Numbered from the stretch's first letter, positions 7,260 through 47,923 are shown. The stretch: DNA of 47,923 nt from an uncultured Bacilli bacterium (GCA_947600335.1 CANQGB010000003.1:1-47923), one strand, 5' to 3'. Numbers and translations: made by a program. The notes: generated by a model from the letters alone, not told the origin.

Positions 7260-7766
7260 TTAAGCTATTACAAACGCAATCGTATTACAAATAACTCCAA
7301 TCAAAAACATTACCCCTGTAAACAAATCAGTTTTATCTCTTTCTATTTTATAACGGCTTAAAAAAGTAATACAGTTATAAGCACATAATAAACTAACAAC
7401 CGATGTCATAGAAGTATCTTTAAAAAATGAGATTATTACTAAAATAATCGAAAATAAAGCCATGCCAATAACACCATATTTCATCGATTTTAAATGCACT
7501 AACTCTGTTAATTTGATAATATTCTCTTCACTCTTTTTAGCTATATCTTTTTCTTCTATCTTCTCTCCAGCGAGAATCTCATTAATACTTACATCTAATA
7601 TTTCACTAAGCGGTTTAAGTAAAGACATATCCATTAAACATAATCCTCTTTCCCACTTACTTACTGCATTTTTAGTAATTCCCAATTTCTCGGCTAATTC
7701 CTCTTGTGTTAATTCTTTTAATTTTCTTTGCTTCGCAATAAACTTGCCAATTTTTTCTTGATTCAT
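7260..7766 (-). CDS. XRE-family HTH regulator with three C-terminal TM helices
   Basis: MNQEKIGKFIA...LTQEELAEKLGITKNAVSKWERG. ATG at 7766 follows GGGAG. Confidence 0.85.
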   Translation of the reverse strand: MNQEKIGKFIAKQRKLKELTQEELAEKLGITKNAVSKWERGLCLMDMSLLKPLSEILDVSINEILAGEKIEEKDIAKKSEENIIKLTELVHLKSMKYGVIGMALFSIILVIISFFKDTSMTSVVSLLCAYNCITFLSRYKIERDKTDLFTGVMFLIGVICNTIAFVIA

Positions 7767-7842
7767 AAATTTTCTCCCTTCGAGAAAAACTATACCATTC
7801 ATAACTTACTATTTAAACATACTAATGGTTTACCCTTATTCT

Positions 7843-8343
7843 TTAATCAACTTGTTTATAGGCCATTTTTTCTATATATGTTTTTTTCCTATTATTTTCC
7901 CATATTCCATAACTAAAACCAACAATCATAAAAATATATTGTATTCCATTATCTTTTATAAAACCATAAATTATAAAGCCAACAATTATAATCATGGCCA
8001 AAGTTAATTCTAAAAAATGGTCTTTATCCCATTTATTACTAAAATATTTAATCTTTTCTTGTAAAGTAAATGAACTATTTTCTAATGCCTTAAATAAATT
8101 ATCATCAGCTTGCTCTCTAAACATTTCTTCCTTAATTTTTTCACCCGCAAAAAATTCATTTAAAGTTATTCCTAAAACATTGCATAATTTTTTATATAAA
8201 GATACATCTGGTAAACATATACCATTTTCCCACCGACTTACAGACTTATTAGTTACGCCTAACTTTTCTGCCAATTGTTCTTGCGTTAATTTTTGTTCTT
8301 TTCTTAAAATCGCGATAAAATTACCAATTTTTTCTTGGTCCAT
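7843..8343 (-). CDS. XRE-family HTH regulator with two C-terminal TM helices
   Basis: MDQEKIGNFIA...LTQEQLAEKLGVTNKSVSRWENG. RBS AGGAG. Confidence 0.85.
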   Translation of the reverse strand: MDQEKIGNFIAILRKEQKLTQEQLAEKLGVTNKSVSRWENGICLPDVSLYKKLCNVLGITLNEFFAGEKIKEEMFREQADDNLFKALENSSFTLQEKIKYFSNKWDKDHFLELTLAMIIIVGFIIYGFIKDNGIQYIFMIVGFSYGIWENNRKKTYIEKMAYKQVD

Positions 8344-8433
8344 AATTTTACTCCTTCCTAAAAAAGATTATATATAAATACTCAAGCAATTAACAGGACA
8401 CCAAACGAGAGTTTTACCAAATTTAAATTTATT

Positions 8434-15262: not shown

Positions 15263-17872
15263 CTATTCATCTTTAAAAAACTTAGCAATGACCGGTTTTA
15301 ATATTTCCATTATTATAAACGATACAATATTAACTAAAATTACAAACAGTAATTGAGAAATCGTTATTAATGTTAAACCAAAAATCTTTCCTATTGGAGT
15401 TAAAAATACTAATAACTGAACTAATAACAACCCTAAAATACCTATATTTAAATATTTATTACTAAATAATCCTCTTTTATATATTGGCTCTTTTAAAGCC
15501 CGACAATTATAAGCAAAAACAAATTCATTAATAATGATACTCAATAAGGCTAAAGTTTGAGCAATTACCGTTCCTAAATACAAAAAATGGTAATAAACAT
15601 ACAAACTAATAAAAGTTTCAAGTACAACTGATATTATTAAAAATGCCCTAAAAAAACTTGTAAATATTCTTTTGCTTAAACCATTAGGTTTTCGATGCAT
15701 CACATCTTTCGAAGCCGCTTCAAATGCCAAAGTTATCGATGGAATAGTATCAGCCACCAAATCAATATATAATACATGAATAGCCGAGATAATTGGATGA
15801 CCACTTAATAAACCAAATAAGATAATTAATATTTCCGTAAAATTACTTGATAAATTATAGAGCACATTAGTTATAACATTGTCATATATTCTTCGTCCTT
15901 CTTCAACTGCTGTAGTTATTGTATTAAAACTATCATCTAATAAAATAATATCTGAAACATCTTTAGTAACATCTGTTCCACTTTTACCCATTCCAATTCC
16001 AACATTAGCTAATTTAATTGCTGGTGAATCATTTACTCCATCACCTGCCATTGCAACAACTTTTCCTAATTTTTGGAAGGCTTTAACTATTCTCAACTTA
16101 TTCTCCGGACTTACTCTAGCAAATACAGAATATTTCTTAATATACCTAACTAATTCTTCATCGGTAATTTTATCTAACTTAGTTGCATCCAAACATTCAG
16201 CATTACTTTGACAGATACCTACTTCTTTAGCAATCGCTGTTGCCGTAAGTAAATTATCTCCCGTAAGCATAATTGGTCTAATCTTGGCATTTAAACAAGT
16301 TTGAATAGATTCTTTAATATTATCTCTAATCGGGTCTTTTAAACCAACCAAGCCCACTAATACTAAATCATCTTCTTCGTTAAAATAATCATCTACTTTT
16401 TCAATATTTTTCTTAATTGGCTTATAAGCAAAGGCCAAAACTTTTAAAGCATCTTGAGCCATAGTTGCATCAAATTCTTTATATAGCTTTTCTATCTCTT
16501 TTGACAAATTCACAATTTTATCTTCTACTAATACTTTGGTACATTTATTTAATATGGCTTCAAATCCACCTTTAGCATATAAAACTTTTTTTCCATCCAT
16601 TTCATAAACAAAACTCATCATTTTTCGATTAGAATCAAATGGTAATTCCATAATTTTTTTATTATTTAAAGTTTTAATATCATTTTCTTGCAAATAATTC
16701 TTTAACGCAACATCGACAGCATCACCATTATAATTGTTACTTTCATCAATCACCGCCGTATTACAATACGCTATAATATCAATCAATTTGGGATAATTTT
16801 TGATTTCTTTTAATTCTATCCTTTTACCATCTAAAAATACTTTCGTAACTTCCATTTTATTTTGGGTTAAGGTTCCCGTTTTATCACTACAAATTATTTC
16901 CGTTGCCCCTAAAGTTTCAATAGCCTTTAAATTTCTGACAATAGCATTTTTCTTCGCCATTTGACTTACACCAATCGAAAGAGTAGCCGTAATAGCAACA
17001 GGTAAGCATTCGGGTACACTAGCTACAATCATAGAAATACAAAGCATTATAATATTTAAAAAACTATAATTATTGATTAAACCATATATCAAAACAAAAA
17101 TTACTAAAAAACTGGCCACCATCGTTATAAATTGACTTATTTTTTGAATTTTCATTTGTAAAGGTGTTATTGGTTCTTCTTTACTATCCATACTTGAAGC
17201 AATTTTTCCTAATTCGGTATTCATTCCGGTAGCCACGACAATCGCTTCAATTTTACCAGCCACTAAAACTGTTCCCGAATAAACCATATTTTTTCTTTCG
17301 GAAAGCGAAACATCATTAATAATAACATCTTTTACTTTATCAACACTTAAACTTTCCCCCGTTAATAATGATTCATCAACCTTACCAAAATAACTTTCTA
17401 CAACTCTTGCATCAGCCGGAATTTTATCCCCTGCTTCTAAAAATAAATAATCTCCTACTACTAAATTCTTAGCATTAATTTCTTTATATTTTCCATTTCG
17501 TTTAACGGTAACATAATTAGTCGAATACTTTTTTAATTTTCCAATTGCATCCTCAGCTTTATATTCTTGTAAAAAGCCCATAAAACAATTCAACAAAGAA
17601 GTACCTAATATTACTATCGGCTCTAAAAAATCACTTTTAGTAATTATGGCATATATCAAAGATAATACTCCAACCACTAATAAAAGAATCACCATTATAT
17701 TTTTAAATTGATTAAAAAATATTTGAGTTTTAGTTTTTTTATTTCTTTCAATAAGTTCATTTTTTCCATTTATCTTCTGTAATTTTTTAACTTTTTCTAA
17801 AGTCAAACCATTTTTTTTAATATTCAATTCTTTATAAATCTCATCAATTGTTTTTTTATATGCCTCATTCAT
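15263..17872 (-). CDS. Cation-transporting P-type ATPase (P2A, Ca2+-like)
   Basis: TGES, PECL, DKTGTLT, TGDN, GDGVNDSPA. Confidence 0.95.
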   Translation of the reverse strand: MNEAYKKTIDEIYKELNIKKNGLTLEKVKKLQKINGKNELIERNKKTKTQIFFNQFKNIMVILLLVVGVLSLIYAIITKSDFLEPIVILGTSLLNCFMGFLQEYKAEDAIGKLKKYSTNYVTVKRNGKYKEINAKNLVVGDYLFLEAGDKIPADARVVESYFGKVDESLLTGESLSVDKVKDVIINDVSLSERKNMVYSGTVLVAGKIEAIVVATGMNTELGKIASSMDSKEEPITPLQMKIQKISQFITMVASFLVIFVLIYGLINNYSFLNIIMLCISMIVASVPECLPVAITATLSIGVSQMAKKNAIVRNLKAIETLGATEIICSDKTGTLTQNKMEVTKVFLDGKRIELKEIKNYPKLIDIIAYCNTAVIDESNNYNGDAVDVALKNYLQENDIKTLNNKKIMELPFDSNRKMMSFVYEMDGKKVLYAKGGFEAILNKCTKVLVEDKIVNLSKEIEKLYKEFDATMAQDALKVLAFAYKPIKKNIEKVDDYFNEEDDLVLVGLVGLKDPIRDNIKESIQTCLNAKIRPIMLTGDNLLTATAIAKEVGICQSNAECLDATKLDKITDEELVRYIKKYSVFARVSPENKLRIVKAFQKLGKVVAMAGDGVNDSPAIKLANVGIGMGKSGTDVTKDVSDIILLDDSFNTITTAVEEGRRIYDNVITNVLYNLSSNFTEILIILFGLLSGHPIISAIHVLYIDLVADTIPSITLAFEAASKDVMHRKPNGLSKRIFTSFFRAFLIISVVLETFISLYVYYHFLYLGTVIAQTLALLSIIINEFVFAYNCRALKEPIYKRGLFSNKYLNIGILGLLLVQLLVFLTPIGKIFGLTLITISQLLFVILVNIVSFIIMEILKPVIAKFFKDE

Positions 17873-18129: not shown

Positions 18130-21100
18130 TTAGGATTTTACTAATTCATCTTCATTATCCATTGTTAATAAGTTTTGAATATCTTTCTCTGTTAATTTTG
18201 AGAAAATATTTTGGTCTCTATCAGCATCCTCGATTAAAGCATCACTCAATACTTTTTTCTTATTTTGCAGTTCTAAAATTCGTTCTTCAATAGTTCCTTT
18301 ACAAATTAGTTTAATAACTTCAACTGTGTTAGTTTGACCGATTCGATGGGCTCTATCAGTAGCTTGATTTTCTACTTGTGGATTCCACCATAAATCTAAG
18401 TGAATAACTACATCCGCACTTGTTAAATTAAGTCCTGTTCCACCGGCTTTTAATGTAATTAAGAAAACATTTGTGTCATCATTATTAAACTTATCAACTA
18501 ATTCCATTCTTTTTTTCGATGGCACACTACCATCTATTACATAGGAAGTAATATTATTTTTATCAAACTCTCTTTTGACAATATCTAAAGCAGTTTTAAA
18601 ACTAGTAAATAAAAGTATCTTATGTTCATTTTCAATAATGCCTTTAACAATCTCAATTAAATTAGTTATTTTAGCACTACCACCCGTATAATTTTCATAG
18701 ATAATACTAGGATCAATACATAATTGCCTTAATTTAGTCAATAATTGTAATATTTTAAAATTACCTTTTTTAAAACCTTCTGTTCGTAATATTTCATCTA
18801 GTTCTTCCCGCGTTTTTTTAAGAGTTGCTACATAAATTTTCTTTTGTTCTTCATTTAAATCAATGCTAATATTATTTTCAATTTTAGGTGGTAATTCCTT
18901 AACAACCTCTTTTTTTCTTCGGCGTAAAATAAATGGTTTTATTTGTTCTTTCAAACTATCCAAATTTTTCAAATCATCTTCTGTTATATCTTTAATATTA
19001 TATTTTTGTTGAAAACGAGTAATCTCAGCCAAATATCCTGGCATTATAAAATCAAAAATACTCCATAATTCCATAACGGAATTTTCTAAAGGCGTACCTG
19101 TTAAAGCAATTTTAGTATTAGCATGCAAATTTTTAACTACCTTAGTCATTTGGGCATTACTATTTTTAATAGTTTGAGCTTCATCAATGACGACTAATTC
19201 AAAATTAATATTGTTATATATTTCTTTATCTTCTCTTACTAAACCATAAGTAGTAATTAAAACTTGAACATCATTTAATTGTTCTAATTCTTGTTTTCTA
19301 ACCTTTTTATTCTCGGCAAAAACTTTATATTTTAAATCTTGTCCAAATTTATCAAATTCATTTTTCCAATTATAAATTAAAGAGGTTGGAGCAACAATTA
19401 AAAACAAAGCATCCTTTTTTTCTTTAACAATTTCTTTAATTAAATAAATAAGTTGAATTGATTTACCTAAGCCCATTTCATCAGCTAAAATACCGCCAAA
19501 ACCACATTTATAAATATTATAAAGCCATTTAACTCCAATTTCTTGATAATCACGCAAGATTTTTTTATCTTCTGCACTTAAACTAATTGGCAAATCTTTA
19601 TAAGAATTAAAGTTATTTATTAATTGGTCAAATAAATTATTGGTTTTAATAATATTATATTTCTTACTTTTTAAGCTATCTAAATAAATTGCTCGATACT
19701 TAGGAATAACCCCATGACCATTTTTAATATCCTTAGTTGATAAATCCATCGTAGCTACTAAATTATCAAATTGTTCCAAATCTTCGTTACTTAAATTTAA
19801 AAAGTCGCCACTTTTCATTCGATAATATTTTTTCTTTTGTCTAAAAGCATCTAAAACTGATAATATTTCTGACTGCGGAATACTACCTAAATCAAAGTCA
19901 TAACTCATAATATTATCTTCCCCAATACTAAAGCTAGAACGAATATTATTTTCGCGAATAATTTTAGCATTTTTTAAATTTTCGGTAGTAAATACTTCAT
20001 AATCATTAGCTAGGTTTTGAAAACCTTCTTCTAATAAATAAACCATCGTATCAATATCATCTAAATATATTTTATTATTATCAATTTTAAATCCTAAATC
20101 TAATAAAGTTTTAATAACCATATTTTCCGTTTCAATATCTCGTAAAACAACGGAATTTTCTTCAAAATAAGCTATTTCTTGTTCTTGATAAACAAATACA
20201 GGATTACAGAAAATAATATCTTCCTTAATATCAAAATAAAGTTTAGCTTGTGGTTTAACTCCTAAAATTATCTCATTTTCTACTGTTTTATCTAAAACAA
20301 CATTATTTTTAATAATTGGCATTATACTTTCTTTAAAAGATGGAAAATCTTCTTCTAAAATAGTTATATCTTCCACTTCATTTTCATTCATTAAAGAAAG
20401 TATTTTTGAAAACTTATCTGGTAAAATATACAAGGTATCATTTTGAACTACATATTTGTAATCACTAGTTAGAGCAATTATGTTATCATCCACAAAAGAT
20501 AAATTATATTCCACATTTTCTTTCTTAAAGTTTAATTTAAAAGGATTACCTTCTTCAATTTTATTAATAACTCCATAACCTTCTATCATAAATTCTTTAT
20601 TGCGCAGTAGATCAATAAAAGCTGAAAATTCTTGAGCTTTGATACTAAAGTTTCGATAATTATAATAATAATTTTTATTATTTATTTTTGATAAATACTT
20701 AATTATAGCTTCATCCTCTTTTGAAAAAAAGAAATTTCGGGGATTATAAGTTAATTCTTTTCCAAATTTTAGTTCTTCCCGTTCTTCATTATAAACACTT
20801 AAAAATTCTGATAGTCTAATATTTAAATTATACATTTTTTTCTCACCGATTTTAAAATTTAAATAAACTAAATCATCATAATAGCTTTGAGAAAAAGTTA
20901 AACTAACATCTATGTGTAATTGTTTTTTGACATTATTAATTTTATTTATAGGGGAAGAAAATTCTTTTAAAAGCATTTTGGATAAATAAATTTTTTTATC
21001 TTCTAAGGCCATCTCAAAAATATCATCATGATATTCGATAAGACAAGCAGCAACATGCTTACAACTAGAAGCTTTTTTAAACTGCGGACAATCACATGAA

Positions 21101-28100: not shown

Positions 28101-31100
28101 TTAAAGCCGAATAAATCCAATAAATATCGGTACCATTAGCATAAGCCGAAGCAGCACTATGAACTGTATACTTATTTAAAACCTCAAAGAAAGCTTTATA
28201 TACTGGTTTAACATTTTCTTCATTAGACCAATTCTTATTTGAAGTTTTATCGTAGTTAATCATTGTTCGGCTAACCATATTGCCATAACCTTTTTCACTA
28301 GTTACACCAGCAATTGAATCATAAAATTTAGTTGCTTTATCAGCAAATTGTGTTAATAAAGTCATTCTTTCAGCTTTCGTAGTTTCTGCAAAAGTAGCTT
28401 TACCTAAAGCATTTAAATATTCATGTTCATCCAAGTTTCCAACCATTATACAAGTTGGAATACCTAAGATATATAAATCTTCACCATGATAAGATAAAAT
28501 TGGTAAAATCAACAAATCTCTAGCTTTTAAGTGATCCCAAACTCGATAACGTATTTCCGGATGTCTTTCCGCTTGAGCTTCATAAACAGTACCTGAATAA
28601 TTATCAACAATCCAACTAGCTGGATCATTCTTATACTTATCAATTGTTAAATTCTTTATAAAGTACTCTATAAATGGACCAACACTAAGATCATTAGTTA
28701 AAGGTTTAATATATTTATTAAAATAACTTGGTAGCTTACTTTCCTCATTTATCATTCTTTCCTTATCGCTTGCCATATCTACCATTGTCAAACTTACAGA
28801 TAATGGATTTAATTTATCACTAAAAATATTTCCATCAAAATAAACGATATCACTAATATTAATTCCACCTATTTGAATATTATAGAACCGATCATAATAA
28901 TTATAAGCATATAATAATTTTTCTAAAGTATAATTATTTTCTAAATCTTGAATAACTTTATTTTCTAATATTTCATTTAAGACTGATATACTATACTCAT
29001 CCACATTAGCTAATAATTTTAAAGCAAAACTATCAGCATTATCTTTAACATGAGCATAATTTTCAACAAAAATTCGAGATTCAGTTTCACTAGTCAAAGA
29101 TGCTATATTATTAACATAATTTAATTTTTTTATCCTATCAACTATATAACTATAAACCTTTGATTTAGTATTAATCAAATATTTGCTATACATATAATCG
29201 ATATCTAGTTCATTAATATCATATACGGCTATTCTATCCCCACTATCTTTTAAAGATACATGATAAACAGCTGTATCATCATCTTCAAATATAACTCTAA
29301 TAGTTTTTATAGTTGATTTATTGTTTTGAGCTAAAGCTACTACTTGATTTCCATTTGCATCATAAGCATATACATCTTTAATAACTTTTGTATTTAAAAT
29401 ATGATTAACATCTAAGATATTTCCATCTTCTACATAATACTTAGCATCATAGAAAGGCATTAATTTATACATATTATGATAAGCAATATTACGAGTTGCA
29501 TCATAATTAGCTAAATTTTTAATTCGTGCTAAATCTGGAATAAATATGCCATCAACTGTATTACTTTCCATTTTAGCATTATCTGTATTTTGATATGCTT
29601 TTAATGTTGGATATTGTCCAGAACTTACTTGTGATAAATCCCAAACATCTTCACTCCAACCTAAAGTTTTAGTATAGAATTCTTTGGTTTTTAATTGTTC
29701 TGGAGTAACAACTTTTATACCTTGTATATTTTCTTGAGACACCATATTTGATGTCGATAACTCATATACCTTCGTAGACTTATCACTTATTTTAGAATTT
29801 TGATAAGAACCATAAACTTTTAACCCATAACCATCAAGCTTAGCTTGAGATAAACTAATACAATTTGTTAAGGTAAGGCCTTTTGGATGTCCAACAAAGC
29901 CTCCTCGTGAACCACCTTTACCATTATAATTAGTCATAACATTGGTATAGAAATTTTCAATGATACTATTATCATAAGCTTCACCTACAACTCCACCAAC
30001 TGCATCATTATTCGCATTAAGAGTTCCAGATATAAAACCATTTTTGATCGTAGTTGTATACATCATACCAACTATGCCACCTAATCTTTTAGCGCTTCCT
30101 ACATTAACATTAGTTGCTGAGATATTCTCTAATTGGCTATTTTTTATAATTCCACCAAATAATCCTGAACCAGCATCATTTATAGTACTAAGTTGAACAT
30201 TCTTCATGTGAACATTTTTAATCGTGGCATTTGTTATATTATTAGCAAGTAAACCATTTGCATTAGCCCGAGAATCTATAATTACTAAATTCTCAATCGT
30301 AGCATCTTTTAAACTATCAAATAATGGAATAGACATATTTTTAATAGTATGACCTTGGAAATCGATTGTTCCTGTAAATTCTTGTGGAATTATCGCCTTT
30401 CCTGAAGTTATATTTTTAGCATCAAAATCCGCATTAACTTTATAAGAACCATCTGGATCTTGTTTAATAAGTTCTATTAAAGTATCAACATCTATATTAC
30501 TTGCTATATCACCATTAATACTACCAAAAGTAATTTCTAATTGATTAATTCGACTATTTCCGTTATATTGAACAACATTATCATAATCTAAAATGAATTT
30601 TAACAAACCATCTTCTATTTTATAATCTTTAATTGTTGTATAGAAATCTCTATCATCTTTTAAGTTAACTTGAACAATATACTTACTTAAATCTTGTAAA
30701 TCAGCAATATTAACATTCGAAATCTTTTCAACTTTATTACCTTTTTGCGTAAATAATGTCATACCTAAAACGTTTTTCATTTCTAAGAAACGTTCACCAA
30801 TATTCATTTCTTCACTTAAGATTAATTCATTTGTAATTTCATTTTTACCATTTTCTAAAGTATTCGTATCTAAATCATAATCAACAAATACTTTAAAAAT
30901 ATAGTATTCACTAGTTGTTTTCTTAAATGTTAAAGTATTTTCTCCAACTATAACATCATCATTAGCTACAACAACTCCTTGTTCATTTAAAACATCAATT
31001 TTACCTTTAGTAAATGAATTATCTGTATTTTCTAAATTAAACTTAGCTGTAATAGTCGAATCTTCATTTTCTGTATAACCAAAATTAGTAGCTTTTGGTT

Positions 31101-34100
31101 TATCCTTTAATACCTCGATTTGAACTTGATTATTTTCTTTAATTTCTAAATGTTTATAATTTTCTAAAACAATAGATTCAATTTTAATATCTTTTACTCC
31201 AGCTTCTTTATAACCATCAATTATAACTTTATAACGGTTATTTTCAGATTCTAAAGTATATAATTTACCATTAATTATAGCTTCAATTGGCTTAAACATA
31301 CTAATATTAGTACTAGCAAAAGATAATTCAATTTTCTCATCTTTAGCCAAATATTTTTTCGTTGTAATATCAAAAACTTTTAATTGATAATCAGATATTA
31401 ACTCGACAATTTCACTTGCTAAAACCTCACGATATTGATTTTCCTTATCCTCTTTATTGGTATCTCTATCATATTCAATTTCCATCTTTAAACTATATGG
31501 TTCAGCATTATCAACCGCGAAAGTTACACTATGAGAACCAGGTTCAATAGCTTGAGTCTTAACTGACTTATCACTATTTTTCGTAAGAATAGCTTCTCCA
31601 CTTACAAAACTATCATCATTATCAGTTAATGTATAATAAATCGTTACCGTACTATCATCTGTATTATCTTCTTGATCATCAATAGTTATAGTTGGTTTAT
31701 CTTTTAATACTTCGATTTGAACATTATTTTGGCTAGTTATTTCAACACCATCACTATAAATAAATTTTTTCGCTTTTAATTCTTTAACTCCAGCTGTTCT
31801 AGTAGCCTCTTCTAAAATTACTTGATATAAATTATCGCTTAATTTTATAGCAATACATTCTTCATTATTTACTAAGATTCTAGCAATATCTTCTGATTTA
31901 TTAGTATTTACTCTATAAGTAAGAGCTACTTTTTCACCTTTATTAAAATATACTTTTTCCGTTTTAACCTCTTCAATATCTAAACGTGTTTGTGCAGTAA
32001 CCTCTTTAGTAACAACTAATTCTTCACCACCAACTGCATCCTCAAGACAACTGTAAGAAGCAATTACTTTAACATAATATTTCTCAGTAACTTCTGTTGG
32101 TAAATCCCTATTAAATTGTTTATTTTCAATCTCTTCTTCAGTAAATACGTATCTCGTAATTTCCTCATTATTAGCATTAAATAAAATTACATTAACCCCT
32201 AAAATAGTTTTATCATAGTCGGTTATATCAAATTGAACATTCAATAAATTATTAACAATATCCTCATTTGTTTTAATTTCTGAAATAATTGGTGCTCTTT
32301 TGATTATTGTTAATTTAAGAACATTATCATTATCTATTTTAAAACTTTTACCATTGTCTAATATAATTTCTTCTAATTTAAATTCATTTTCGCCTAAATT
32401 TTCAATTCCTTCTTTTACAGTAATTTCATAATGATCTTGAACCTTTTGAATATCATCATATCTATGACCATTTATTATTACAGCACTTGGTTCATGACTT
32501 GTACTATTAGAACTTACAAAGCCAAGTTGGAAAGCAGCATTTTTTTCAATTGCCATTAATTCTTTACCATTTTGATATGCTTTAAAGCTTCCTACTTTAA
32601 ATTGATAATCAATATTAAATTGTAAATCTTTTGTAACTGTTAAAGCCCCCGTATATTTATCTTTATCAGAAAAATCAGCATTTGTTAAATCGTATTCAAC
32701 CACAATATTTGCTTCATACTTTTCACCATCTACCGCTGGAACAGTTACTTTATTTTGACCATTAGTAATATTTTGAACAACTATTTCTTTATCATTTGAA
32801 TCAGTAATTACAATCCTAGCTTTCGTAATACTAGCATCCTTATCATTTAAATCAAAAGTAATATCTAATTCTTCATTTAAGAAATTTTCTCCTACTGACC
32901 AATTCTTAATTTCTGGAATTTCTTTTAATACATCGATATTAACATCTTTAGCTGTTTTAATTACTTTTTCATTATTTAAAATAACTTTTTCAATATTAAT
33001 ATTTTGAATGCCAGCTCTATCACTTGCTTTTAAAACTACTTGATATGTCCCATCGCTTAAAGTCTCAACTTTATAAGTAGTTCCATTAATAACAACATTT
33101 TCTATTGTAGCCCCATAACTAACATCAGCTGCAAATTTCAAAATAACTTCCGCATTTTTTTCATAAGAATAATTATCTAAACTAACATTAGTAAATGTTA
33201 TTTCATAGTCTAAAGTTTTTTCTAATTTTTGCACTAATAAAGTTAAATCGGTAATGGTTATTTTATTATCACCATTCATATCAGCATTTTCTATGTAAGC
33301 TTTATCAATATTTTCAGAATTAATTAAATAAAGTTCTAAAAGCTCAGCATCAGCATAGTTTACCTCATAATCACCATTTAACTCACCAAGTAATGAATAA
33401 TTGACTGCTAAAGCAACCACCGTTCCAACAAATTGTAGAGAAACTAAGCCAATAGTTGTAAAGAATAAGAAACTATGAAGATTAGTCTTATTATTTTTAT
33501 TTTTATTTTTCTTTTTTATAAACCAATAAGCTAAAACTCCTATTTCAAGGGCAATAACACTTATCACTATTACATAACGTATTTCATTCTTTTTACTTAC
33601 TGCTTTTATATCTTCTATTTCAGTTTTTTCATTTTTATTTGTATTTCTATCATTAGTTGTTGAACTATCCCCACTATTAACATTATTTTCAGTTTTGTTA
33701 TCTTTGTTATCAGTATTATTAGTATTATCATCTGTTCCAATTGTTGGAATAGTTTCTTGAACCTTTATGGCTGAGATAACGGCCTTTTCATTAAAAACAT
33801 TTAAATCTGCTTTACCTTCTGATACCGCTACATCGGCAAAAGTTACTTCCGTATCTTGGGGTAAAATATTATCCCTAACTTTTAAACGAATTTGAACAAT
33901 TTCACTTGGATCTTTAACTCCAACCCGATTAATAGCCACTAATTCTTGGGTATTCGGATTATATTTTAAAGATTCCCACCCATTTAAAGAAATAAAATCA
34001 CTTTGATATACTTTTTCAAAAATGTTTTCATCATAGACCAAAGTAGCTTTATATGCATTAATACCCTTTTCAACATCATTAAAAGTATGCATTTTAAAGG

Positions 34101-41992: not shown

Positions 41993-42670
41993 ATGGAAAT
42001 AATAATGCGTTCAATTACTATGTTTATAATTCTTTTCTTGATTGTAAAAATTATGGGCAAAAAGCAAATTAAAAATTTAACTTTATATGATTATGTTTTA
42101 AGTATTACGATTGGCTCTATCGCTGCTGATAGTATAATTAGCTTAGACACGCCTTTACAAGATGGTATTCTTGCTTTAATTATCTTCAGTATTATTGGTT
42201 ATCTATCATCGCTTCTATCTTATCATAATCACACGGTTGAAGAAATAATTGATGGTGAACCTCTAGTTTTATTTGAAAATAATAATTTTAATTATGACAA
42301 CTTAAAAACCGCGAAATTAAGTGTAGCCAAAGTTTTAGAAAATTGTCGACTTAAAGGCTGCTTTGATATTAATGAACTAGAATGTGCGATTTTAGAACCA
42401 TCTGGGGACATATCTATTCTTTTAAAAGACAAATCTCAACCAATCACAAGTAATGACTTAAAAAGCAATATTCAAAAAAATAGTAAAAAACAATCTTTAA
42501 ATTATTTAATAATTGTCGATGGTATTATCAATGAAAATGAATTAAAAAAAGCAAAGAAAAACAAATCTTGGCTCAATAAATATTTAAAAGAACACAAAAA
42601 AAAGATAGAAAATATTTCTCTATTATCTATCGATAAAAATGATAAAGTAACTTTATTTAACCGTAACTAA
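41993..42670 (+). CDS. DUF421 (YetF-like) membrane protein
   Basis: MGKKQI..LT..D...ITIGSIAA, GEPLVL, AILEPSGDISI, IVDG.I. Confidence 0.88.
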   Translation: MEIIMRSITMFIILFLIVKIMGKKQIKNLTLYDYVLSITIGSIAADSIISLDTPLQDGILALIIFSIIGYLSSLLSYHNHTVEEIIDGEPLVLFENNNFNYDNLKTAKLSVAKVLENCRLKGCFDINELECAILEPSGDISILLKDKSQPITSNDLKSNIQKNSKKQSLNYLIIVDGIINENELKKAKKNKSWLNKYLKEHKKKIENISLLSIDKNDKVTLFNRN

Positions 42671-42802
42671 TAAAAGTTGCTTTTTTATTTTTAATAATCT
42701 TCTTGCAACCGCTTTTGAATGATTAAACTTTTTATTAAAATCATTATTTACTAATACTAAAAACTAAAAAGTATATTTAAACAATTTAGCAACATTTTTA
42801 TT

Positions 42803-43450
42803 TTATTCATCAATAAAATCTTTTAATTTCTTGGTATTTCTAGGATGTCTCATTTTAATTAATGCTTTTTGTTCCTGCTTAACAATTGTATTTTTAGAGC
42901 ATCCAAATATTTCGGCTACCTCTTCTAGTGTTTTTTTATGGGCATCATCAAGACCATATCGTAATAAAATAATTTGTTGTTCTCTAGAAGTCAAACATTT
43001 CAAAGCTTCACGAACAATATCTATTTTCATTTCCGATATTACATCCTCTATCAGTTGTTCAGCATCTGTTCCAATTATATCTTCAATCTTCATATCATCG
43101 CCGTCTTTATCTTTACCAATTGGCTGCTCAAAACTTAATACATGACTATGTTTATTATATTTAATTAAGTCTCGCCTTATTTGATTTTCAATTGCAACAG
43201 CAATGTATGAACTAAAGCCCTCTATTGCTCTTTCATTATAATCAAATTTATTAATAGCATTTAAGAGACCTTCCGTACCAGCTGACATTAGTTCTTCAAA
43301 TGTTAAACCTTTTCCTAGATACTTTTTAGCAAAAAATCTAACCAATCCGCTATTACATACTGTTAAAACTTCTAAGGCTTCTTTATCCTCAAGTTCTCGC
43401 CACGCTTTCAAACAATTTTTAGTTTCATCCAATGTTAATCTTCTAGCCAT
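42803..43450 (-). CDS. Sigma-70-family alternative sigma factor (regions 2 and 4)
   Basis: GLVRFFAKKY, GLLNAINKFD, FSSY...IENQI, LTSREQQIILLRYGL...TLEEVA. ATG at 43450 overlaps the upstream stop. Confidence 0.9.
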   Translation of the reverse strand: MARRLTLDETKNCLKAWRELEDKEALEVLTVCNSGLVRFFAKKYLGKGLTFEELMSAGTEGLLNAINKFDYNERAIEGFSSYIAVAIENQIRRDLIKYNKHSHVLSFEQPIGKDKDGDDMKIEDIIGTDAEQLIEDVISEMKIDIVREALKCLTSREQQIILLRYGLDDAHKKTLEEVAEIFGCSKNTIVKQEQKALIKMRHPRNTKKLKDFIDE

Positions 43451-44510
43451 TATTTCCACCACTATTTTTTAAAGATTTTGTCAATTTCTTTTGATAGCCT
43501 AATTCCTCCGCTTTAAAACTAACTGCCCCTGTTGTTCTTCCCAGTACCTCAGCTATTTCTGAATAAGTCATCGTTTTATAATTTTCTCTTAAATACTTTA
43601 ATTCTTTACCTTTCCAATATTGAGGAAGCATATAACTATAACCCATATTTCTCAGTAAATTAGCAATTGCTGATTCACTTCTATTTATAATTTTAGCAAT
43701 TTCTAAATAATTCTTACCCGATTTAAATAAAGATACGGCTTGCTTGATTTCTTCTTCTGTCCATTTACGATACCAAAGTGGATTTTCTTTAATATCTCTC
43801 ACTCTTTTTTCTTTTAACCATTCAGGTTCAATACCAAGCATATTCTTTTCAACACATCTTGAATCCCATTCATTTTGATTATTTTCTAAAAAAAGCATTA
43901 AATCATTCCATGTAATAACATAATATGACATATTATTAGTTAATTTTTTCTTTTTTAAATTCAAACCTAAATCAACCCAAGTAGTAGTAATTCTATCACG
44001 ACTTACATTAAGCAAATCACACATATCAGAAACTGTAATAAAGTCATAATTATTTTTAATCATAGGTCCTAATCCCATTCTTACTGCTTTTACTTTTAAT
44101 GAAAAAACCGTTCTTTTTAATGTTTGGGCAATTTTTTCAATAGGCTTAGTTCCCCATAAATCTGATAATAATACTTCTTCCTCTTTTGTCCATTTTCTTC
44201 TGTCTTGAATTAAAGTTATTCCCAATTTTCGAGCCTTTATATAAATTGCATTTTCTGTTTTATTCATAATTTTAGCTATTTCCGAATAATGAAATTTATC
44301 AGACAATAATTTTAATGTTTCGATTTCTTCATTTGTCCACTTATTAGAGGTAGGTATATCTAATCCATTTTGTTCAGCCACTCTACAAACTGCATACCAT
44401 GAACAATTAAACTTTTTCTTCATACTATAAGGAGACTCTTTTCCCCAATTACTAATTATATATTGTATTTCTTCATCAGTAAATTCTCGCTTTTGACCAT
44501 TCATAGACAT
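43443..44510 (-). CDS. Protein of tandem Myb/SANT-like HTH repeats
   Basis: Five (W/F)TxEE-type repeats, most with IA..L.R(T/S)..A(I/V), around a central HTH-like segment. Confidence 0.7.
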   Translation of the reverse strand: MSMNGQKREFTDEEIQYIISNWGKESPYSMKKKFNCSWYAVCRVAEQNGLDIPTSNKWTNEEIETLKLLSDKFHYSEIAKIMNKTENAIYIKARKLGITLIQDRRKWTKEEEVLLSDLWGTKPIEKIAQTLKRTVFSLKVKAVRMGLGPMIKNNYDFITVSDMCDLLNVSRDRITTTWVDLGLNLKKKKLTNNMSYYVITWNDLMLFLENNQNEWDSRCVEKNMLGIEPEWLKEKRVRDIKENPLWYRKWTEEEIKQAVSLFKSGKNYLEIAKIINRSESAIANLLRNMGYSYMLPQYWKGKELKYLRENYKTMTYSEIAEVLGRTTGAVSFKAEELGYQKKLTKSLKNSGGNNG

Positions 44511-44689
44511 CGCCTTTTTATTATTTTTTTAAATCTTTCATTTATGTAACTTAACCTAATCATTATATAATTTTTTATTCATAATTTAAGTGTTATTATA
44601 TATCAAAGTCCAAAAATTTTAAATAAATTTTTCCTAATGATATTAATAAATTAAAATAAAATTCGAATAGCTTGACTAATAAATATTTA

Positions 44690-45529
44690 CTATTTTATTA
44701 ATGATTTAAACAAATCTTCATAAATTTTATTAGCATCTAATTGTTTTATAAATGTTATTTTATGCCTATCATGAGTAAAAGTAAAAGTATTATCTTTATT
44801 AATAATCGGGCAACTTATTTCCATAGTTTGAAACCATTTATTATTTATCATATAAGCAATAGCCCCAATATCCCAAATAGGATATCTTTTATGTGGACCC
44901 CAAAATCGATTATAAAACTTATCACATAAATAATCACACAACTCATTTTTACCGCCAATTTCTGCATAAAGTTCATAAATTGATGTCATTAAATTTGATG
45001 TTATCGGAGAACATGGAACAACTGTTAATTTTACTTTGGAATAAAAAACTGTTTTTACTGCTTCAACATCTTGTCTGAAATTAAAATCTTTATTATCCCC
45101 AAACAAAAAATTTGTTCCATTCCAAATTATTTCAATTTTATTAATAATTTTTGGCTCTTTTGTTATAGCCAGTGCAATATTTGTTAAACAACCTATCGCA
45201 ATTATATATACTTTATCATTTTCCATTGCGAGTTCAATTATTTTATCTACTGCATCACTAGTATCTAAATAACCATTCGTTAAATAGCCTCTACTGCCTT
45301 TATAAATTAAGCTTTTATCAGATATACCAAGATAATTAAATATTTTACATGTTTCATCATAACTATCATCTATTGAATCAAATACACTTTTTTTATAGCC
45401 ACTATGTTTAAATGGAGCTATCGTGATTGCTTTAATATCAAACATATCTTTATTTTTTAATAGATATGATATTGCAAATAAGTCATCTGCTTCATTAAAT
45501 GTATCTGTATCCAAAATTATTTTTTTCAT
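44690..45529 (-). CDS. Nucleoside hydrolase (IUNH family)
   Basis: IILDTDTFNEADD, IGCLTNIA, DFNFRQD..A, IWD. Confidence 0.88.
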   Translation of the reverse strand: MKKIILDTDTFNEADDLFAISYLLKNKDMFDIKAITIAPFKHSGYKKSVFDSIDDSYDETCKIFNYLGISDKSLIYKGSRGYLTNGYLDTSDAVDKIIELAMENDKVYIIAIGCLTNIALAITKEPKIINKIEIIWNGTNFLFGDNKDFNFRQDVEAVKTVFYSKVKLTVVPCSPITSNLMTSIYELYAEIGGKNELCDYLCDKFYNRFWGPHKRYPIWDIGAIAYMINNKWFQTMEISCPIINKDNTFTFTHDRHKITFIKQLDANKIYEDLFKSLIK

Positions 45530-45574
45530 AAAAATACTCCATCCTATTATGTAGATTACTAGTACAAAAATATG

Positions 45575-45679
45575 TTTTTTAATTTGACAAATAAATCAAT
45601 TTCAGTCTATAAAAATTATAGCATAAACTTTATAAGTTTAAAACTCGAGTTATCATAGTTAAAATTTGATATCACCATG
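45575..45679 (-). repeat. Copy 1 of a ~100-bp intergenic module (decayed hairpin, extended -10 promoter)
   Basis: About 75 of 100 positions identical to 47426..47529 by hand alignment, one gap. Confidence 0.75.
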
Positions 45680-45702
45680 ATTAAACTAACTCATTTAAAA
45701 AC

Positions 45703-45728
45703 AAACTATTATGTTTTAGTAATAGTTT
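45703..45728 (-). terminator. Hairpin after the toxin gene
   Basis: AAACTATTA-N8-TAATAGTTT. Confidence 0.5.
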
Positions 45729-45745
45729 CTTTATGTCATAAACTA

Positions 45746-46020
45746 CTAAACTTTATCATAATGAGTCCACATTCTAATAATATGAATTTCTTTTCTTTCT
45801 TCATCTACTTCATAAACAATTCGATGCTGTCTATTAATTCTTCTAGAATATAATCCTGATAATTCACCAGTTAATTTTTCATATGATGGTGGATAACAAA
45901 AAAATTTTCCATCATTAGATTTAATATATTTTTACAATTCTTATCAAGATTAGCATTTTTTAGTTTTAATTTATCTTTTTCTGCTTGTTTAGAAAATTTA
46001 ATTGTATATAAACTTACCAT
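45746..46020 (-). pseudogene. yoeB: Txe/YoeB-family toxin with a 1-nt frameshift
   Basis: MVSLYTIKFSKQAEKD...MMENF, then in the -1 frame CYPPSYEKLTGELSGLYSRRINRQHRIVYEV...IRMWTHYDKV. Span is 275 nt; the shift is at the A7 run 45898-45904. Confidence 0.88.
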
Positions 46021-46271
46021 TCTTCATCCTTTTCATATTTTTTAGCAGACTCCCAATTTTCATTTTTTCTTATGTTATTAATATCATCTACATACCCTGG
46101 AATACTTGATAAAAATAATGTCTCTTCAATATTTTTCCATTCATCTTCAGATATTAATACAGCATTTTTTCCTTTATTATTTATAATAGTAATAGGATTA
46201 AAACCAACATTAACATCTGATATCAATTTGTATAGGTTTTCCATAGCATTAGTTATATTTATTGTACTCAT
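46014..46271 (-). CDS. yefM: Phd/YefM-family antitoxin
   Basis: NLYKLISDV...PITI...NAVLISEDEW..IEETLFL.SIPG. Overlaps the toxin start. Confidence 0.9.
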   Translation of the reverse strand: MSTINITNAMENLYKLISDVNVGFNPITIINNKGKNAVLISEDEWKNIEETLFLSSIPGYVDDINNIRKNENWESAKKYEKDEEW

Positions 46272-46407
46272 TATTAATCACCTCATTTGCATTGTAACGA
46301 CATCAAGTATCTAATAAAATTCAAAGATTAAATAAACATGCATTAGCATTAAAAAAGAAGAGTATTTAATATCTTCCAAAACATATTGATACGGGTGTAG
46401 AGGCTAT

Positions 46408-46857
46408 TTAACAACTTTTATCATATTGCATAAAATATCTAGTTTCAGTTGTTTCTTTTATTTTAAATCCTAATTTTTTGTATAAATTTAAAGCAAGAGT
46501 ATTTTCTTTATAAACCCATAAATAAACTTTAGAATAATTATTTAATATATTATTTAATATATTCGTACCTATTCCTTTTCTTCTATAATTTTTATCTATA
46601 TATAATTCGTTTAGTAAAATACCATCTTCATATTTTTCTAATAATAAACATCCAACTTTTTTGTTGTCGACAATAATAATCTCATAATCATCAATTTGTT
46701 TAGGAGTAGTAGTTTTAACATAATTAGTTATTTTTTCAATTTCTCCTTCAGGTAAGTCTTTCGCATAATCTAAAATGGTTGCTAATTTATAGGATTTTAA
46801 TAACTTTATATCATCTTTAGTTGCGCATTCTAATTTATAGGCTTTATGATTTTTCAT
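46408..46857 (-). CDS. GNAT-family N-acetyltransferase
   Basis: LYIDKNYRRKGIGT, LWVYKEN..ALNLYKKLGF. ATG at 46857 after AAGGA. Confidence 0.88.
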   Translation of the reverse strand: MKNHKAYKLECATKDDIKLLKSYKLATILDYAKDLPEGEIEKITNYVKTTTPKQIDDYEIIIVDNKKVGCLLLEKYEDGILLNELYIDKNYRRKGIGTNILNNILNNYSKVYLWVYKENTLALNLYKKLGFKIKETTETRYFMQYDKSC

Positions 46858-46937
46858 AAAAAAGTTCCTTCTCTCTTTATTAATTATATTAAGATTGAAA
46901 AGTTCAAACATACTCATTAAGAAAACATACAACAACT

Positions 46938-47387
46938 TTATAAATAAATAGTTAATGTTTCACTTGTTGTTTTAAAATTGCATTTTTCATATAAACGTTT
47001 AGCTTTAATATTATTACTCCACACGTTTACTTCTATTTTATCAGCATTTTTGGATATAGCCCACTTTTTAAAATATTCTATTAAAGATGTAGCAATTTTC
47101 TTATTACGGTAATTATTATCGATATATAATGCATCTAATTTAGCAATTATATATTTATATGTATCATCAACTGGTTTAATGATTCCATATAAATAACCTA
47201 CAACTTGAGCATTTTCTTCAGCAACAATAAGCAATTTATTAGAATCTTCAATATAATTTTCATACATATTAGTGACCGTAAAATTCTCATCGATTCCAGG
47301 GTCGTATTGTCTTTCATCTCTTATTAAAAGAGTTAAAAATTCATTTAATATTTTTACATCATCATAATTTGCTTTTCTAATATTCAT
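46938..47387 (-). CDS. GNAT-family N-acetyltransferase
   Basis: MNIRKA, LYIDNNYRNKKIAT, VWSNN.KAKRLYEKCNF. Confidence 0.9.
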   Translation of the reverse strand: MNIRKANYDDVKILNEFLTLLIRDERQYDPGIDENFTVTNMYENYIEDSNKLLIVAEENAQVVGYLYGIIKPVDDTYKYIIAKLDALYIDNNYRNKKIATSLIEYFKKWAISKNADKIEVNVWSNNIKAKRLYEKCNFKTTSETLTIYL

Positions 47388-47425
47388 TTATAAATCTCCT
47401 ATTAATAAATAGTAAAATTGGTGTA

Positions 47426-47529
47426 TTTTTTAAATTGACATATACATCAATTCAATCTATAAAAATTATATCAAAATTTCAAACATTTTAAAACTCGAAC
47501 TATAATAGCCCGAGTTTGATATCATTATG
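47426..47529 (-). repeat. Copy 2 of the ~100-bp intergenic module (intact 12-bp hairpin, extended -10 promoter)
   Basis: Minus strand AAACTCGGGCTA-TTA-TAGTTCGAGTTT, then TGATATAAT, then AATTGA-N8-TCAATT. Confidence 0.75.
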
Positions 47530-47572
47530 TGCCTAAAGAAAGAAGTACAACAACTTTGGACAAAAGAAATAG

Positions 47573-47923
47573 TTAGTAATATTTTCTATCTCTTGCATGT
47601 ACCCAAGCATCAGCTTCTTTTCTTCTAATTCTTTTAAATTCTTTTACTAATCTGTTATTTGCACTACTAACTTGTTTTCCTATATTGTTAGTTGAAAACC
47701 TATAATTTGATTCAGGTAAATGAATTAAAAGGTATTTTGCATAAGATCTTAAGTAAAAATTATGAATACCTTCAATTTCGTTCATAATTTCATCTGAGTT
47801 TTCTAAAGTACATCTTTTAACAAGAGTATAACAAAATGTTTGCTCATCTTTGGTTAATTTTAATTTTGCATATTTTTGTATATCAAAGTTAGGAATGTTA
47901 TTTTTGATTTTATTGAATTTTTC
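47573..47923 (-). CDS. 3' end of a hypothetical protein running off the window
   Basis: Frame is open from 47923 (EKFNKIKNNIPNFDIQKY...) through the ORF-track call 47573..47785. Confidence 0.65.
   Translation of the reverse strand, partial: EKFNKIKNNIPNFDIQKYAKLKLTKDEQTFCYTLVKRCTLENSDEIMNEIEGIHNFYLRSYAKYLLIHLPESNYRFSTNNIGKQVSSANNRLVKEFKRIRRKEADAWVHARDRKYY

Follow-up and report, generated by a model that had tools for sequence, protein, structure and literature searches.

A unit repeated at tRNA and tmRNA gene ends in uncultured gut Bacilli and its probable part in a recombinase-less array at ssrA

Staphylococcal cassette chromosome (SCC) elements carry large serine recombinases (LSRs), the Ccr proteins, and insert at the 3′ end of one conserved gene, where they build up composite arrays in tandem, some members being pseudo-elements that lack a recombinase and have direct repeats at their borders. 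Integrons, with IntI, attI and attC cassettes, hold co-oriented small accessory genes such as GNATs and toxin–antitoxin pairs, with a site after each gene and an upstream promoter, and the Correia, REP/BIME and BOX repeats are short intergenic hairpin sequences able to terminate, stabilise or start transcripts. Here we describe a 47,923-nucleotide stretch of DNA from an uncultured Bacilli bacterium (CANQGB010000003.1; hereafter the window), which is the entire contig C3 of a 1.23-Mb genome (G000; 69 contigs, 28.7% G+C) and whose right end bears, on the minus strand, two copies of a hairpin- and promoter-bearing repeat (hereafter the unit). We favour, with some reserve, the reading that this right end is a recombinase-less accreted array, similar to a cis-mobilizable element (CIME), in the ssrA attachment site, and that the repeat is one half of an attachment (att) site and a lineage-wide trailer of tRNA and tmRNA genes. 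Judged from its sequence, the repeat probably also acts as a terminator and a promoter.

The ssrA islands of Dehalococcoides offer the closest parallel. In the part of McMurdie et al. 2011 (PMC3146451) that deals with them, these islands follow immediately on the tmRNA gene in tandem, with repeats of its 3′ end as their borders; a CcrB-like LSR stands beside the left junction, extra conserved sequence surrounds the repeats, and islands without an integration module are read as cis-mobilizable and added by accretion. The gut Bacilli array shares with the islands described there the tandem position downstream of tmRNA, the repeat-bounded units and the link to an LSR. It differs from that description in that tmRNA is only one target of its element family, which also uses many tRNA genes, in a junction at the very CCA end where that of Dehalococcoides is in the T-loop, in much smaller units (single genes up to ~5 kb), in a far-end repeat that is a mimic of the RNA gene (hereafter the tail) and not a copy of the local one, and in an element with a MobV relaxase and a single recombinase gene. 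SCC elements, which are also treated in that part of PMC3146451, share the LSR, insertion at a gene 3′ end and tandem recombinase-less arrays; in contrast, the gut Bacilli LSR, whose best NCBIfam match is CcrB, is far below the cut-off of that family (129 versus 900 bits), its targets are RNA genes and not rlmH, the sites are many per genome and the units are far smaller.

Similar comparisons can be drawn with the accretion arrays of integrative mobilizable elements (IMEs) and CIMEs of streptococci and other Firmicutes, which, as far as the relevant parts of Guedon et al. 2017 (PMC5704250) and Coluzzi et al. 2017 (PMC5357655) describe them, share small elements of integrase plus relaxase and decay to recombinase-less elements that keep their att sites. 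The serine-integrase IMEs surveyed in those parts insert inside genes (rumA, traG, maff2, snf2), tRNA 3′ ends being used by tyrosine integrases, whereas the gut Bacilli family is a serine recombinase family at tRNA and tmRNA CCA ends; the parts of the two surveys covered by our incomplete literature check place no serine-recombinase IME at a tRNA 3′ end. Unlike the Correia, REP/BIME and BOX repeats, the unit has neither terminal inverted repeats nor recent copies and gives no indication of transposing, and its position is tied to CCA ends.

The repeat unit and the ends of stable-RNA genes

The initial annotation had put the likeness of 45575–45679 and 47426–47529 at about 75%, which is borne out on the minus strand (75% over 79 ungapped nt, 80% over ~100 nt, and 84% mean column identity over 142 columns when the flanks are included), and the GATATC, hairpin, TGnTATAAT and palindrome it named were all located in both copies. 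Copy 2 (47426–47527; profile match E 1.1e-22) begins with the box TAATGATATC (47518–47527, with GATATC at 47518–47523), followed at 47491–47517 by a hairpin (the T hairpin) with a 10-bp stem that includes two G·U pairs and amounts to 12 pairs as folded; its folding energy is −13 kcal/mol (z −3.8) on the minus strand and −8.1 kcal/mol on the plus strand. The stretch TTTTAAAATG separates this hairpin from an extended −10 sequence, TGATATAAT (TGnTATAAT, 47465–47473), and the palindrome ATTGA-N8-TCAAT lies at 47434–47451. In copy 1 (45575–45681; E 3e-16) the box is GGTGATATC, with GATATC at 45668–45673, the extended −10 is TGCTATAAT (TGnTATAAT, 45615–45623), a relative of the copy 2 palindrome occupies 45583–45600, and the hairpin (45641–45667) has decayed (z −1.0, with no fold equivalent to that of copy 2). 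Unlike copy 1, a homologous end of the toxin–antitoxin cassette at another locus (L173) retains ...TTTACCA and an intact hairpin. The two copies hold the only TG-extended promoter-like sites in 42500–47923.

Alignments of 42 and 87 copies yield a consensus that is longer than the ~100 bp first assigned to the module, with a tail or tRNA end upstream and often a second leader hairpin. It runs from the 3′ end of an RNA gene, or from a tail with CACCA at its end, through the GATTGATA box (GATTGATAnn) and the 10-7-10 T hairpin (AAACTCGRAC-TTTTATA-GTTCGAGTTT) to TAAwATG (TTTTAA follows the hairpin), the extended −10 (TRTGnTAtAAT) and a leader with one or two hairpins, namely P1 (AAATTGA...TCAATTT), then AGAAAACACAC, then P2 (TTGCATATTGA...TCAATATGC). 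P2, the second leader hairpin, stands downstream in many copies and is missing from both copies in the window. On the plus strand, 47435–47463 reads TTGACA-N17-TATAAA, a near-consensus sigma-70 sequence opposite the unit promoter and directed back into the hairpin; its TTGACA is the conserved 3′ arm of the palindrome P1 and is retained in most full copies, and to judge by the letters it may be an antisense promoter or an operator.

Pairing across the whole structure in the 42 copies (75.1% of cells) exceeds that of shuffles (71.8%; none of 500 reaches the observed value) and of slid controls (at most 42%), and in the T hairpin alone 92.9% of cells are paired. One T-hairpin pair is G·U in 20 copies and A–U in 19, an alternation that fits an RNA of the gene-sense strand, since the other strand would have an A·C mismatch, and several pairs of P2 have changed on both sides. 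The T stem is conserved far beyond the needs of pairing, with most positions at least 90% identical and two-sided change in just 2 of 10 pairs. Where no co-oriented gene follows, as on contig C5 of G000, units lose the promoter part. Behind many tails, and at the left ends of the LSR elements described below, a canonical terminator (ATCAAyTTC...GAAGTTGAT and then a run of T; L055-type loci) stands next after a T-type hairpin, an arrangement suggesting that the T hairpin has a function other than, or in addition to, termination.

The repeat is not just a duplication, the outcome that the initial annotation would have read from two copies and a conserved gene order; it is a multi-copy family, and gene order around it varies between relatives. 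A profile search (nhmmer) finds eight copies in G000 at E <= 1.4e-11 and one partial copy at 1.8e-4, and the search of genome and relatives that had been proposed for the module turned up many more: a 141-nt copy used as query has matches in 26 of the 30 other genomes of the genus, and four of the six further genera of the family that were sampled also yield matches, as against just two weak ones in 24 genomes outside it. A 30-mer taken from the hairpin has exact matches in 89 stretches of a species-genome collection, and 78 of the 80 matches listed are titled as metagenome-assembled genomes (MAGs) of Bacilli, mostly ‘uncultured Bacilli bacterium’, from gut samples. The same 30-mer has no match in a viral contig collection, and a phage origin of the unit was rejected on that ground.

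In G000, the starts of four units coincide exactly with the 3′ ends of stable-RNA genes, those for tRNA-Leu(UAG) on C32, tRNA-Phe on C42, tRNA-Leu(CAA) on C15 and tmRNA on C28. ARAGORN calls a tRNA or tmRNA gene directly before 53 of the 87 distinct copies, which begin at its CCA end (tmRNA and 16 anticodon types are represented); about six more visibly stand at the end of a tRNA or tmRNA that escaped ARAGORN, the edge of the locus cutting through some of these. An Rfam scan of eight loci returned just tRNA and tmRNA, plus sub-threshold noise, and lends no support to the unit being a known RNA family. Copies do not cluster by genome or by site, the median identity of the promoter–leader part being 0.65 within a genome and 0.64 between genomes. 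The genes that follow the unit are without a Pfam family in 38 of 68 cases; GNAT (six), WDGH (three), KilA-N (three) and NUDIX (two) domains are found among the others. The proposal that the repeat is a portable terminator–promoter element stands as far as anatomy goes, a sense-strand hairpin with G·U pairs followed by an extended −10 being reasonable for such a role; a recent spread of the kind seen with miniature inverted-repeat transposable elements (MITEs) is not supported, the copies being only ~64–65% alike in the promoter–leader part.

The array behind the tmRNA gene

The window overlaps contig C28 by 77 nt, its final letters matching the reverse complement of the C28 end without a difference, and the C3–C28 join is bridged by a contig of a different sample (run X4, record 11). 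From this overlap the order of the array is tmRNA, unit, ORF200, tail, unit, GNAT, GNAT, yefM, frameshifted yoeB, unit. The 5′ part of ORF200, an open reading frame (ORF), lies on C28 behind the tmRNA gene and another copy of the unit, and the first 35 nt of copy 2 (CATAATGATATCAAACTCGGGCTATTATAGTTCGA) are identical to that unit. Along the minus strand, the upstream part comprises RNase R, SmpB, p347, p67, p181, tmRNA, unit, ORF200, tail and copy 2, and the downstream part GNAT1, GNAT2, yefM, the broken yoeB, copy 1, a nucleoside hydrolase, a helix-turn-helix (HTH) protein, a sigma factor, the membrane protein Memb225, Sir2 and a glycosyltransferase. Homologue searches find no recombinase in the window, as had been stated, and no relaxase, and three units stand in series from the tmRNA 3′ end, as expected of a CIME.

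The 3′ part of ORF200 (47573–47923, minus strand; 116 codons, open at the window end, function not assigned) has no Pfam family match. It is followed by a tail of the class called A, CTATTTCTTTTGTCCAAAGTTGTTGTACTTCTTTCTTTAGGCACA (47528–47572, minus strand), whose end imitates that of a tRNA in slightly decayed form (CACA for CACCA). As noted earlier, the two copies of the unit bracket GNAT–GNAT–yefM–yoeB, all on the minus strand, and the yoeB frame is broken. GNAT1 (46938–47387; PF00583, E 1.7e-16) has the tail word AGTTGTTGTA directly after its stop codon, and GNAT2 (46408–46860; PF13508/PF00583) has its stop codon within the tail word AAAAGTTGTTAA. They precede the yefM antitoxin gene (46014–46271; PF02604, E 1.5e-11) and the yoeB-like toxin gene (45746–46020), whose end, GATAAAGTT-TAG, is itself a tail word. 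The break in yoeB falls in a run of seven A on the plus strand (45896–45902); its two frames jointly match an intact 91-aa gene of G006, and other copies in public runs have an extra G at 45902/45903. Either the toxin is truly inactivated or the assembly is wrong in the homopolymer. Past copy 1, the first gene is that of the nucleoside hydrolase (44690–45529, minus strand; PF01156, E 1.1e-27), and no tail word was found at its end.

Between species, the flanks of this stretch are kept and its content is not. Both RNase R–SmpB–p347–p67–p181–tmRNA on one side and Memb225 (41993–42670, plus strand) on the far side are conserved in G005, G006, G009 and G015, with 1 to ~8 different genes in the interval; Memb225 is syntenic, at 77–81% protein identity, in these four genomes and in G019 and G026. 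GNAT1, GNAT2 and the toxin–antitoxin pair are located elsewhere in other species. Homologues of GNAT1 are on other contigs in relatives, for example on G026:C33 behind tRNA-Thr and a partial unit, GNAT2 has 88% DNA identity to a sequence on G026:C40 in a different context, and YefM has 85–87% protein identity in G006, G015 and G026 with a different neighbourhood in each. The initial proposal of junctions between exchangeable co-oriented accessory genes is supported in this respect, with variable gene content, conserved flanks and homology that breaks at the edges of the unit.

The sharpest boundaries are those of ORF200, which in G015 follows tRNA-Leu(CAA) and a unit, not tmRNA. The two genes share 94% DNA and 89.5% protein identity (G015:C10), as against ~79% for the Memb225 flank across the genus, and a block of 93–97% identity extends from the ribosome-binding site as far as ...CTTTAGG(G)CACCA and no further, the preceding hairpin part being ~80% alike. 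ORF200-like homology boundaries are also seen for a WDGH-domain gene in three species and three contexts, and the high-identity block of yoeB stops at its stop codon. With one genome per genus across the family (121 genomes), ORF200 is found only in G000 and G015, too rare for a survey of its sites. A break at the level of strains was found in run X4, from another sample, in which a strain 95–99% identical to G000 has 540 other letters in place of 47409–47464 (56 letters); the replacement spans the region from the −10 box of copy 2 to 21 nt before the GNAT1 start, within the leader of the unit.

The class-A tail has the consensus AAAAGTTGTyGTACTyCTTyCTTTAGGGCACCA, and this pattern has 20 matches in 15 of the 31 genomes of the genus and none in a reversed control. 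Wherever it was looked at, a T-type hairpin follows 10–14 nt later. Of 47 distinct tail copies that were aligned, 43 have the motif GTTGTYG at 22 nt from their end, and a tail word ends ORF200, GNAT1, GNAT2 and yoeB and none of nine other genes examined. An acceptor-like minihelix abutting ACCA was considered for the tail and dropped for weak covariation, and the tail is treated here as a conserved sequence.

Serine-recombinase elements and the origin of the array

The integron-like mechanism first suggested for these junctions does not fit the recombinases found. G000 has two tyrosine recombinases (PF00589), on contigs C12 and C48 and none in the window; these are XerD (339 bits, above the cut-off) and a XerC-like protein, and they reach 153 and 128 bits with the integron-integrase model against a cut-off of 265. 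The recombinase at such junctions is an LSR. The array resembles an integron in its co-oriented, small accessory genes, a conserved site for each gene and an upstream promoter; it differs in having no IntI (by the model cut-off), in promoters that recur within the array, in a recombinase of the serine type and in sites that do not look attC-like, the tails showing by eye none of the GTTRRRY/RYYYAAC cores of attC, in agreement with the first description of the repeats.

The search for a recombinase beyond the window, as the initial annotation had advised, led to the single LSR of G000, on C5. Its gene follows tRNA-Thr(CGU). The element opens, right behind the CCA, with a variant of the T-type hairpin (T2) and a canonical terminator; then follow a 90-aa ORF, the LSR (617 aa; Resolvase, Recombinase and Zn_ribbon_recom), a Mob_Pre/MobV relaxase (448 aa) and one cargo gene. 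With a site-specific recombinase and a relaxase and without a conjugation pore, this element, which lies outside the window, is an IME, and the LSR elements as a group also have the site-specific insertion and defined ends expected of IMEs. The cargo gene is 80% identical to the gene of a recombinase-less cassette at another locus (L105) that is bounded by unit and tails, which is at most an indirect sign that such cassettes derive from, or move with, integrase-bearing elements. The right end of the C5 element has no canonical tail, and a T-box leader and argS follow. This T-box-type leader (AAGGTGGTACCACGG), before the arginyl-tRNA synthetase-like gene and right after the cargo gene (C5 ~19560–19820; L240 5560–5820), marks the resumption of chromosomal DNA. 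Between the LSR and relaxase genes there is a conserved, hairpin-rich non-coding stretch (C5 ~16800–17040, L240 2800–3040; L062 reverse complement 950–1290) with the long hairpins CCTAAGGT...ACCTTAG and CCCCCATATTTTGA...TCAAAATATATAGGGGG, which may be an oriT or a structured RNA.

Homologues of the LSR are present in 20 of the 31 genomes of the genus (E <= 1e-20). LSR genes or fragments are unusually many for genomes of 1–1.7 Mb (up to 12 in G023, 11 in G030 and 9 in G021), and many of these matches are fragments, and many have internal stops. At 17 of 30 fetched LSR loci, a co-oriented tRNA or tmRNA gene (Thr-CGU, Thr-GGU, Leu-CAA, Leu-UAG, Phe, Gly, His or tmRNA) ends 419–1029 nt upstream, and at three more the left end of the element follows the CCA of a tail, two of these being class-A tails. 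In G002 an LSR element occupies the same tmRNA site as the array in G000. That element and its sister at a tRNA-Leu gene of G022 are 43% alike before the CCA and 77–96% alike (mostly 90–96%) for 4.2 kb past it, except for one interval at 60% that includes a gap of 58 nt. Beyond this stretch they carry different cargo genes and close with a tail of class B (CGCACCA), which in G022 is followed by the hairpin of the unit. The right end is a class-B tail in two of three sister elements, the third (G012) being cut by a contig end.

The RNA-gene ends themselves show a dyad. In 41 of 48 copies adjacent to tRNA or tmRNA, the T-loop motif GTTCRAN lies 17 nt to the left of the RNA 3′ end and its reverse complement, the 5′ arm of the hairpin, 13 nt to the right, a spacing that places the dyad centre on the CC of CCA. 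The tail motif GTTGTYG is 22 nt out, 5 nt further than the tRNA motif. For serine integrases, the part of Rutherford et al. 2013 (PMC3783163) on att sites gives a zinc-ribbon motif whose distance from the crossover is 5 bp less in attB than in attP, and the shift between tail and tRNA matches that between attP and attB in a way that can only be called suggestive. The tail and T-loop motifs share 5 of 7 letters, and the right arm of the presumed attP lacks the same shift.

These features can be assembled into a model in which the CCA end with its trailer would be the attachment site, recognised by the LSR, of the ~5-kb IMEs, which each have a small ORF, the LSR, a MobV-type relaxase and one cargo gene and which insert exactly at the CCA. 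Each inserted unit would end in the conserved tail that imitates a tRNA 3′ end (...CACCA), the tails being the far-end arms of the elements. After insertion, tail and trailer would form a new target to which further units could be added by accretion, which would explain tandem growth. The cassettes of the window would have arrived by this route, to give tmRNA / unit / ORF200–tail / unit / GNAT1, GNAT2, yefM and broken yoeB / unit / nucleoside hydrolase. At the level of RNA, the hairpin may end or process the upstream transcript and the promoter may restart transcription for the next gene, a role that would explain why the unit is retained.

Several observations weigh against this model. No remnant of an LSR element (recombinase, relaxase or small ORF) is found in the window or in G000 outside C5, and the left junction of ORF200 behind tmRNA is of unit type T1 and not the T2 of the left ends of LSR elements, which means that ORF200 is not simply the cargo of an LSR element inserted there. 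Eleven of the 31 genomes, including G015, G006 and G026, have no LSR match at E <= 1e-20, and among them G015 and G006 have 5–10 unit matches each and G026 three. G002, in turn, has LSR elements and no unit match, the tail of its element being followed by a different hairpin, so that the hairpin cannot be an obligatory half-site. In four public runs, searched as assembled contigs only, there is no trustworthy cassette-skipping joint that would point to excision or circular junctions, the skips listed having sides of 21–29 letters. Pairing in the putative tail stem is 69.6% against 67.7% in shuffles, and 10 of 500 shuffles reach the observed value. Promoter-like matches in 42500–47923 are not above chance in this AT-rich DNA (43 against 45.7 expected from shuffles), and a simple consensus scan of the same region calls no terminator, because just four T follow the hairpin of copy 2. 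A family-wide test for hot spots found that pairs of the same tRNA all differ in the downstream gene, with the upstream control shared in just 6 of 83 pairs; as upstream neighbours are almost as variable as downstream ones, family-wide turnover was dropped as evidence.

The alternative that survives best, which we nevertheless consider unlikely, is that the unit is purely regulatory, comprising a terminator or 3′-processing hairpin, a promoter and a leader, placed behind many stable-RNA genes and between genes with separate transcription. Species would then differ in gene content through ordinary gain, loss and homologous exchange, and the LSR elements would merely share a preference for tRNA ends. 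The conserved CACCA tails at the 3′ ends of unrelated cassette genes are left unexplained on such an account, as are the ORF200 block that ends at CACCA behind two RNA genes in two species and the LSR elements that start at tail CCAs, and the sequence of the stem is kept well beyond what pairing would require. It does accommodate the G·U pairs and one-sided changes, which show selection on the RNA-sense strand, the lack of clustering by genome or site, as expected of old sites held by function, the loss of the promoter part where no co-oriented gene lies downstream (C5), the module-rich genomes without an LSR, and the general loss of synteny around tRNAs in the family-wide control.

Active capture of cassettes in trans strikes us as improbable. 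Here, cassettes running from ribosome-binding site through ORF and tail to CACCA would move as circles, an LSR encoded elsewhere would insert them at any CCA with a trailer, and the unit would supply transcription, in analogy to an integron. The ORF200 and WDGH homology blocks, which run from ribosome-binding site to tail, have the expected extent, the 35-nt repeat of copy 2 stands as an identical direct repeat on both sides of ORF200, the X4 strain has its replacement at 47409–47464, the unit is followed by genes for small accessory enzymes or for proteins of no assigned function, and tails serve as targets of LSR elements. The contigs of the public runs, however, show no circular form or empty site, and the left boundary is not fixed, the promoter and leader being present, partly deleted or absent beside the same cassette. 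In the part of PMC3783163 that deals with directionality, known serine integrases need a directionality factor for attL- and attR-like sites. The 11 of 31 genomes that have cassettes and no LSR match are also difficult to reconcile with capture of this kind.

The boldest form of the idea, in our judgement doubtful, is that gut Bacilli run an LSR-based counterpart of the integron, in which single genes with a ~45-nt tRNA-mimic tail are acquired in trans at the CCA of any of about a dozen tRNAs, or of tmRNA, and the trailer insulates and expresses each of them. If this were true, the end of each stable-RNA gene would serve, in a genome of 1.2 Mb, as a small cassette platform with expression of its own.

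That the unit is itself a mobile repeat of the MITE or REP type, transposing into intergenic DNA and bringing promoter and terminator with it as Correia or REP might, is highly improbable, for although it is multi-copy, intergenic and hairpin-bearing and the genome has IS200-type Y1 transposase genes, there are no near-identical copies within a genome (0.65 within and 0.64 between genomes), no terminal inverted repeats or target duplications in the alignments of 42 and 87 copies, only unrelated hairpins and no unit at the Y1 transposase locus, and an orientation fixed relative to genes with a position fixed at CCA ends. The Y1 genes of G000 number two, and a link to IS200/IS605 (TTGAT target, Y1 transposases) was rejected, since the hairpins at the transposase loci are unrelated and no unit lies nearby.

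If the array did arise by accretion at ssrA, uncultured gut Bacilli with reduced genomes would exchange accessory genes through very small LSR elements and recombinase-less remnants stacked at the ends of stable-RNA genes. An LSR family at the CCA of many tRNAs and tmRNA departs from the pattern in the parts of PMC5704250 and PMC5357655 cited above, and a natural multi-site integrase with a short, definable target would interest genome engineers. In MAGs of the family the unit flags variable islands and explains contig breaks there, and the T hairpin, tail and CCA words could be used to find cassette ends automatically.

Neighbouring genes and other repeats

Beyond the nucleoside hydrolase gene, at 43443–44510 on the minus strand, lies the gene of a 355-aa protein made up of repeated Myb/HTH-like units, with weak matches to HTH_23, Sigma70_r4 and GcrA and a DNA repeat at 43665–43711 and 44244–44290. 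It overlaps the start of a sigma-70-family gene (42803–43462). Elsewhere in the window, two pairs of direct repeats, 7614–7788 with 8191–8365 and 31060–31131 with 31657–31728, are 72–73% identical and ~580–600 nt apart, and are probably repeated domains within large genes.

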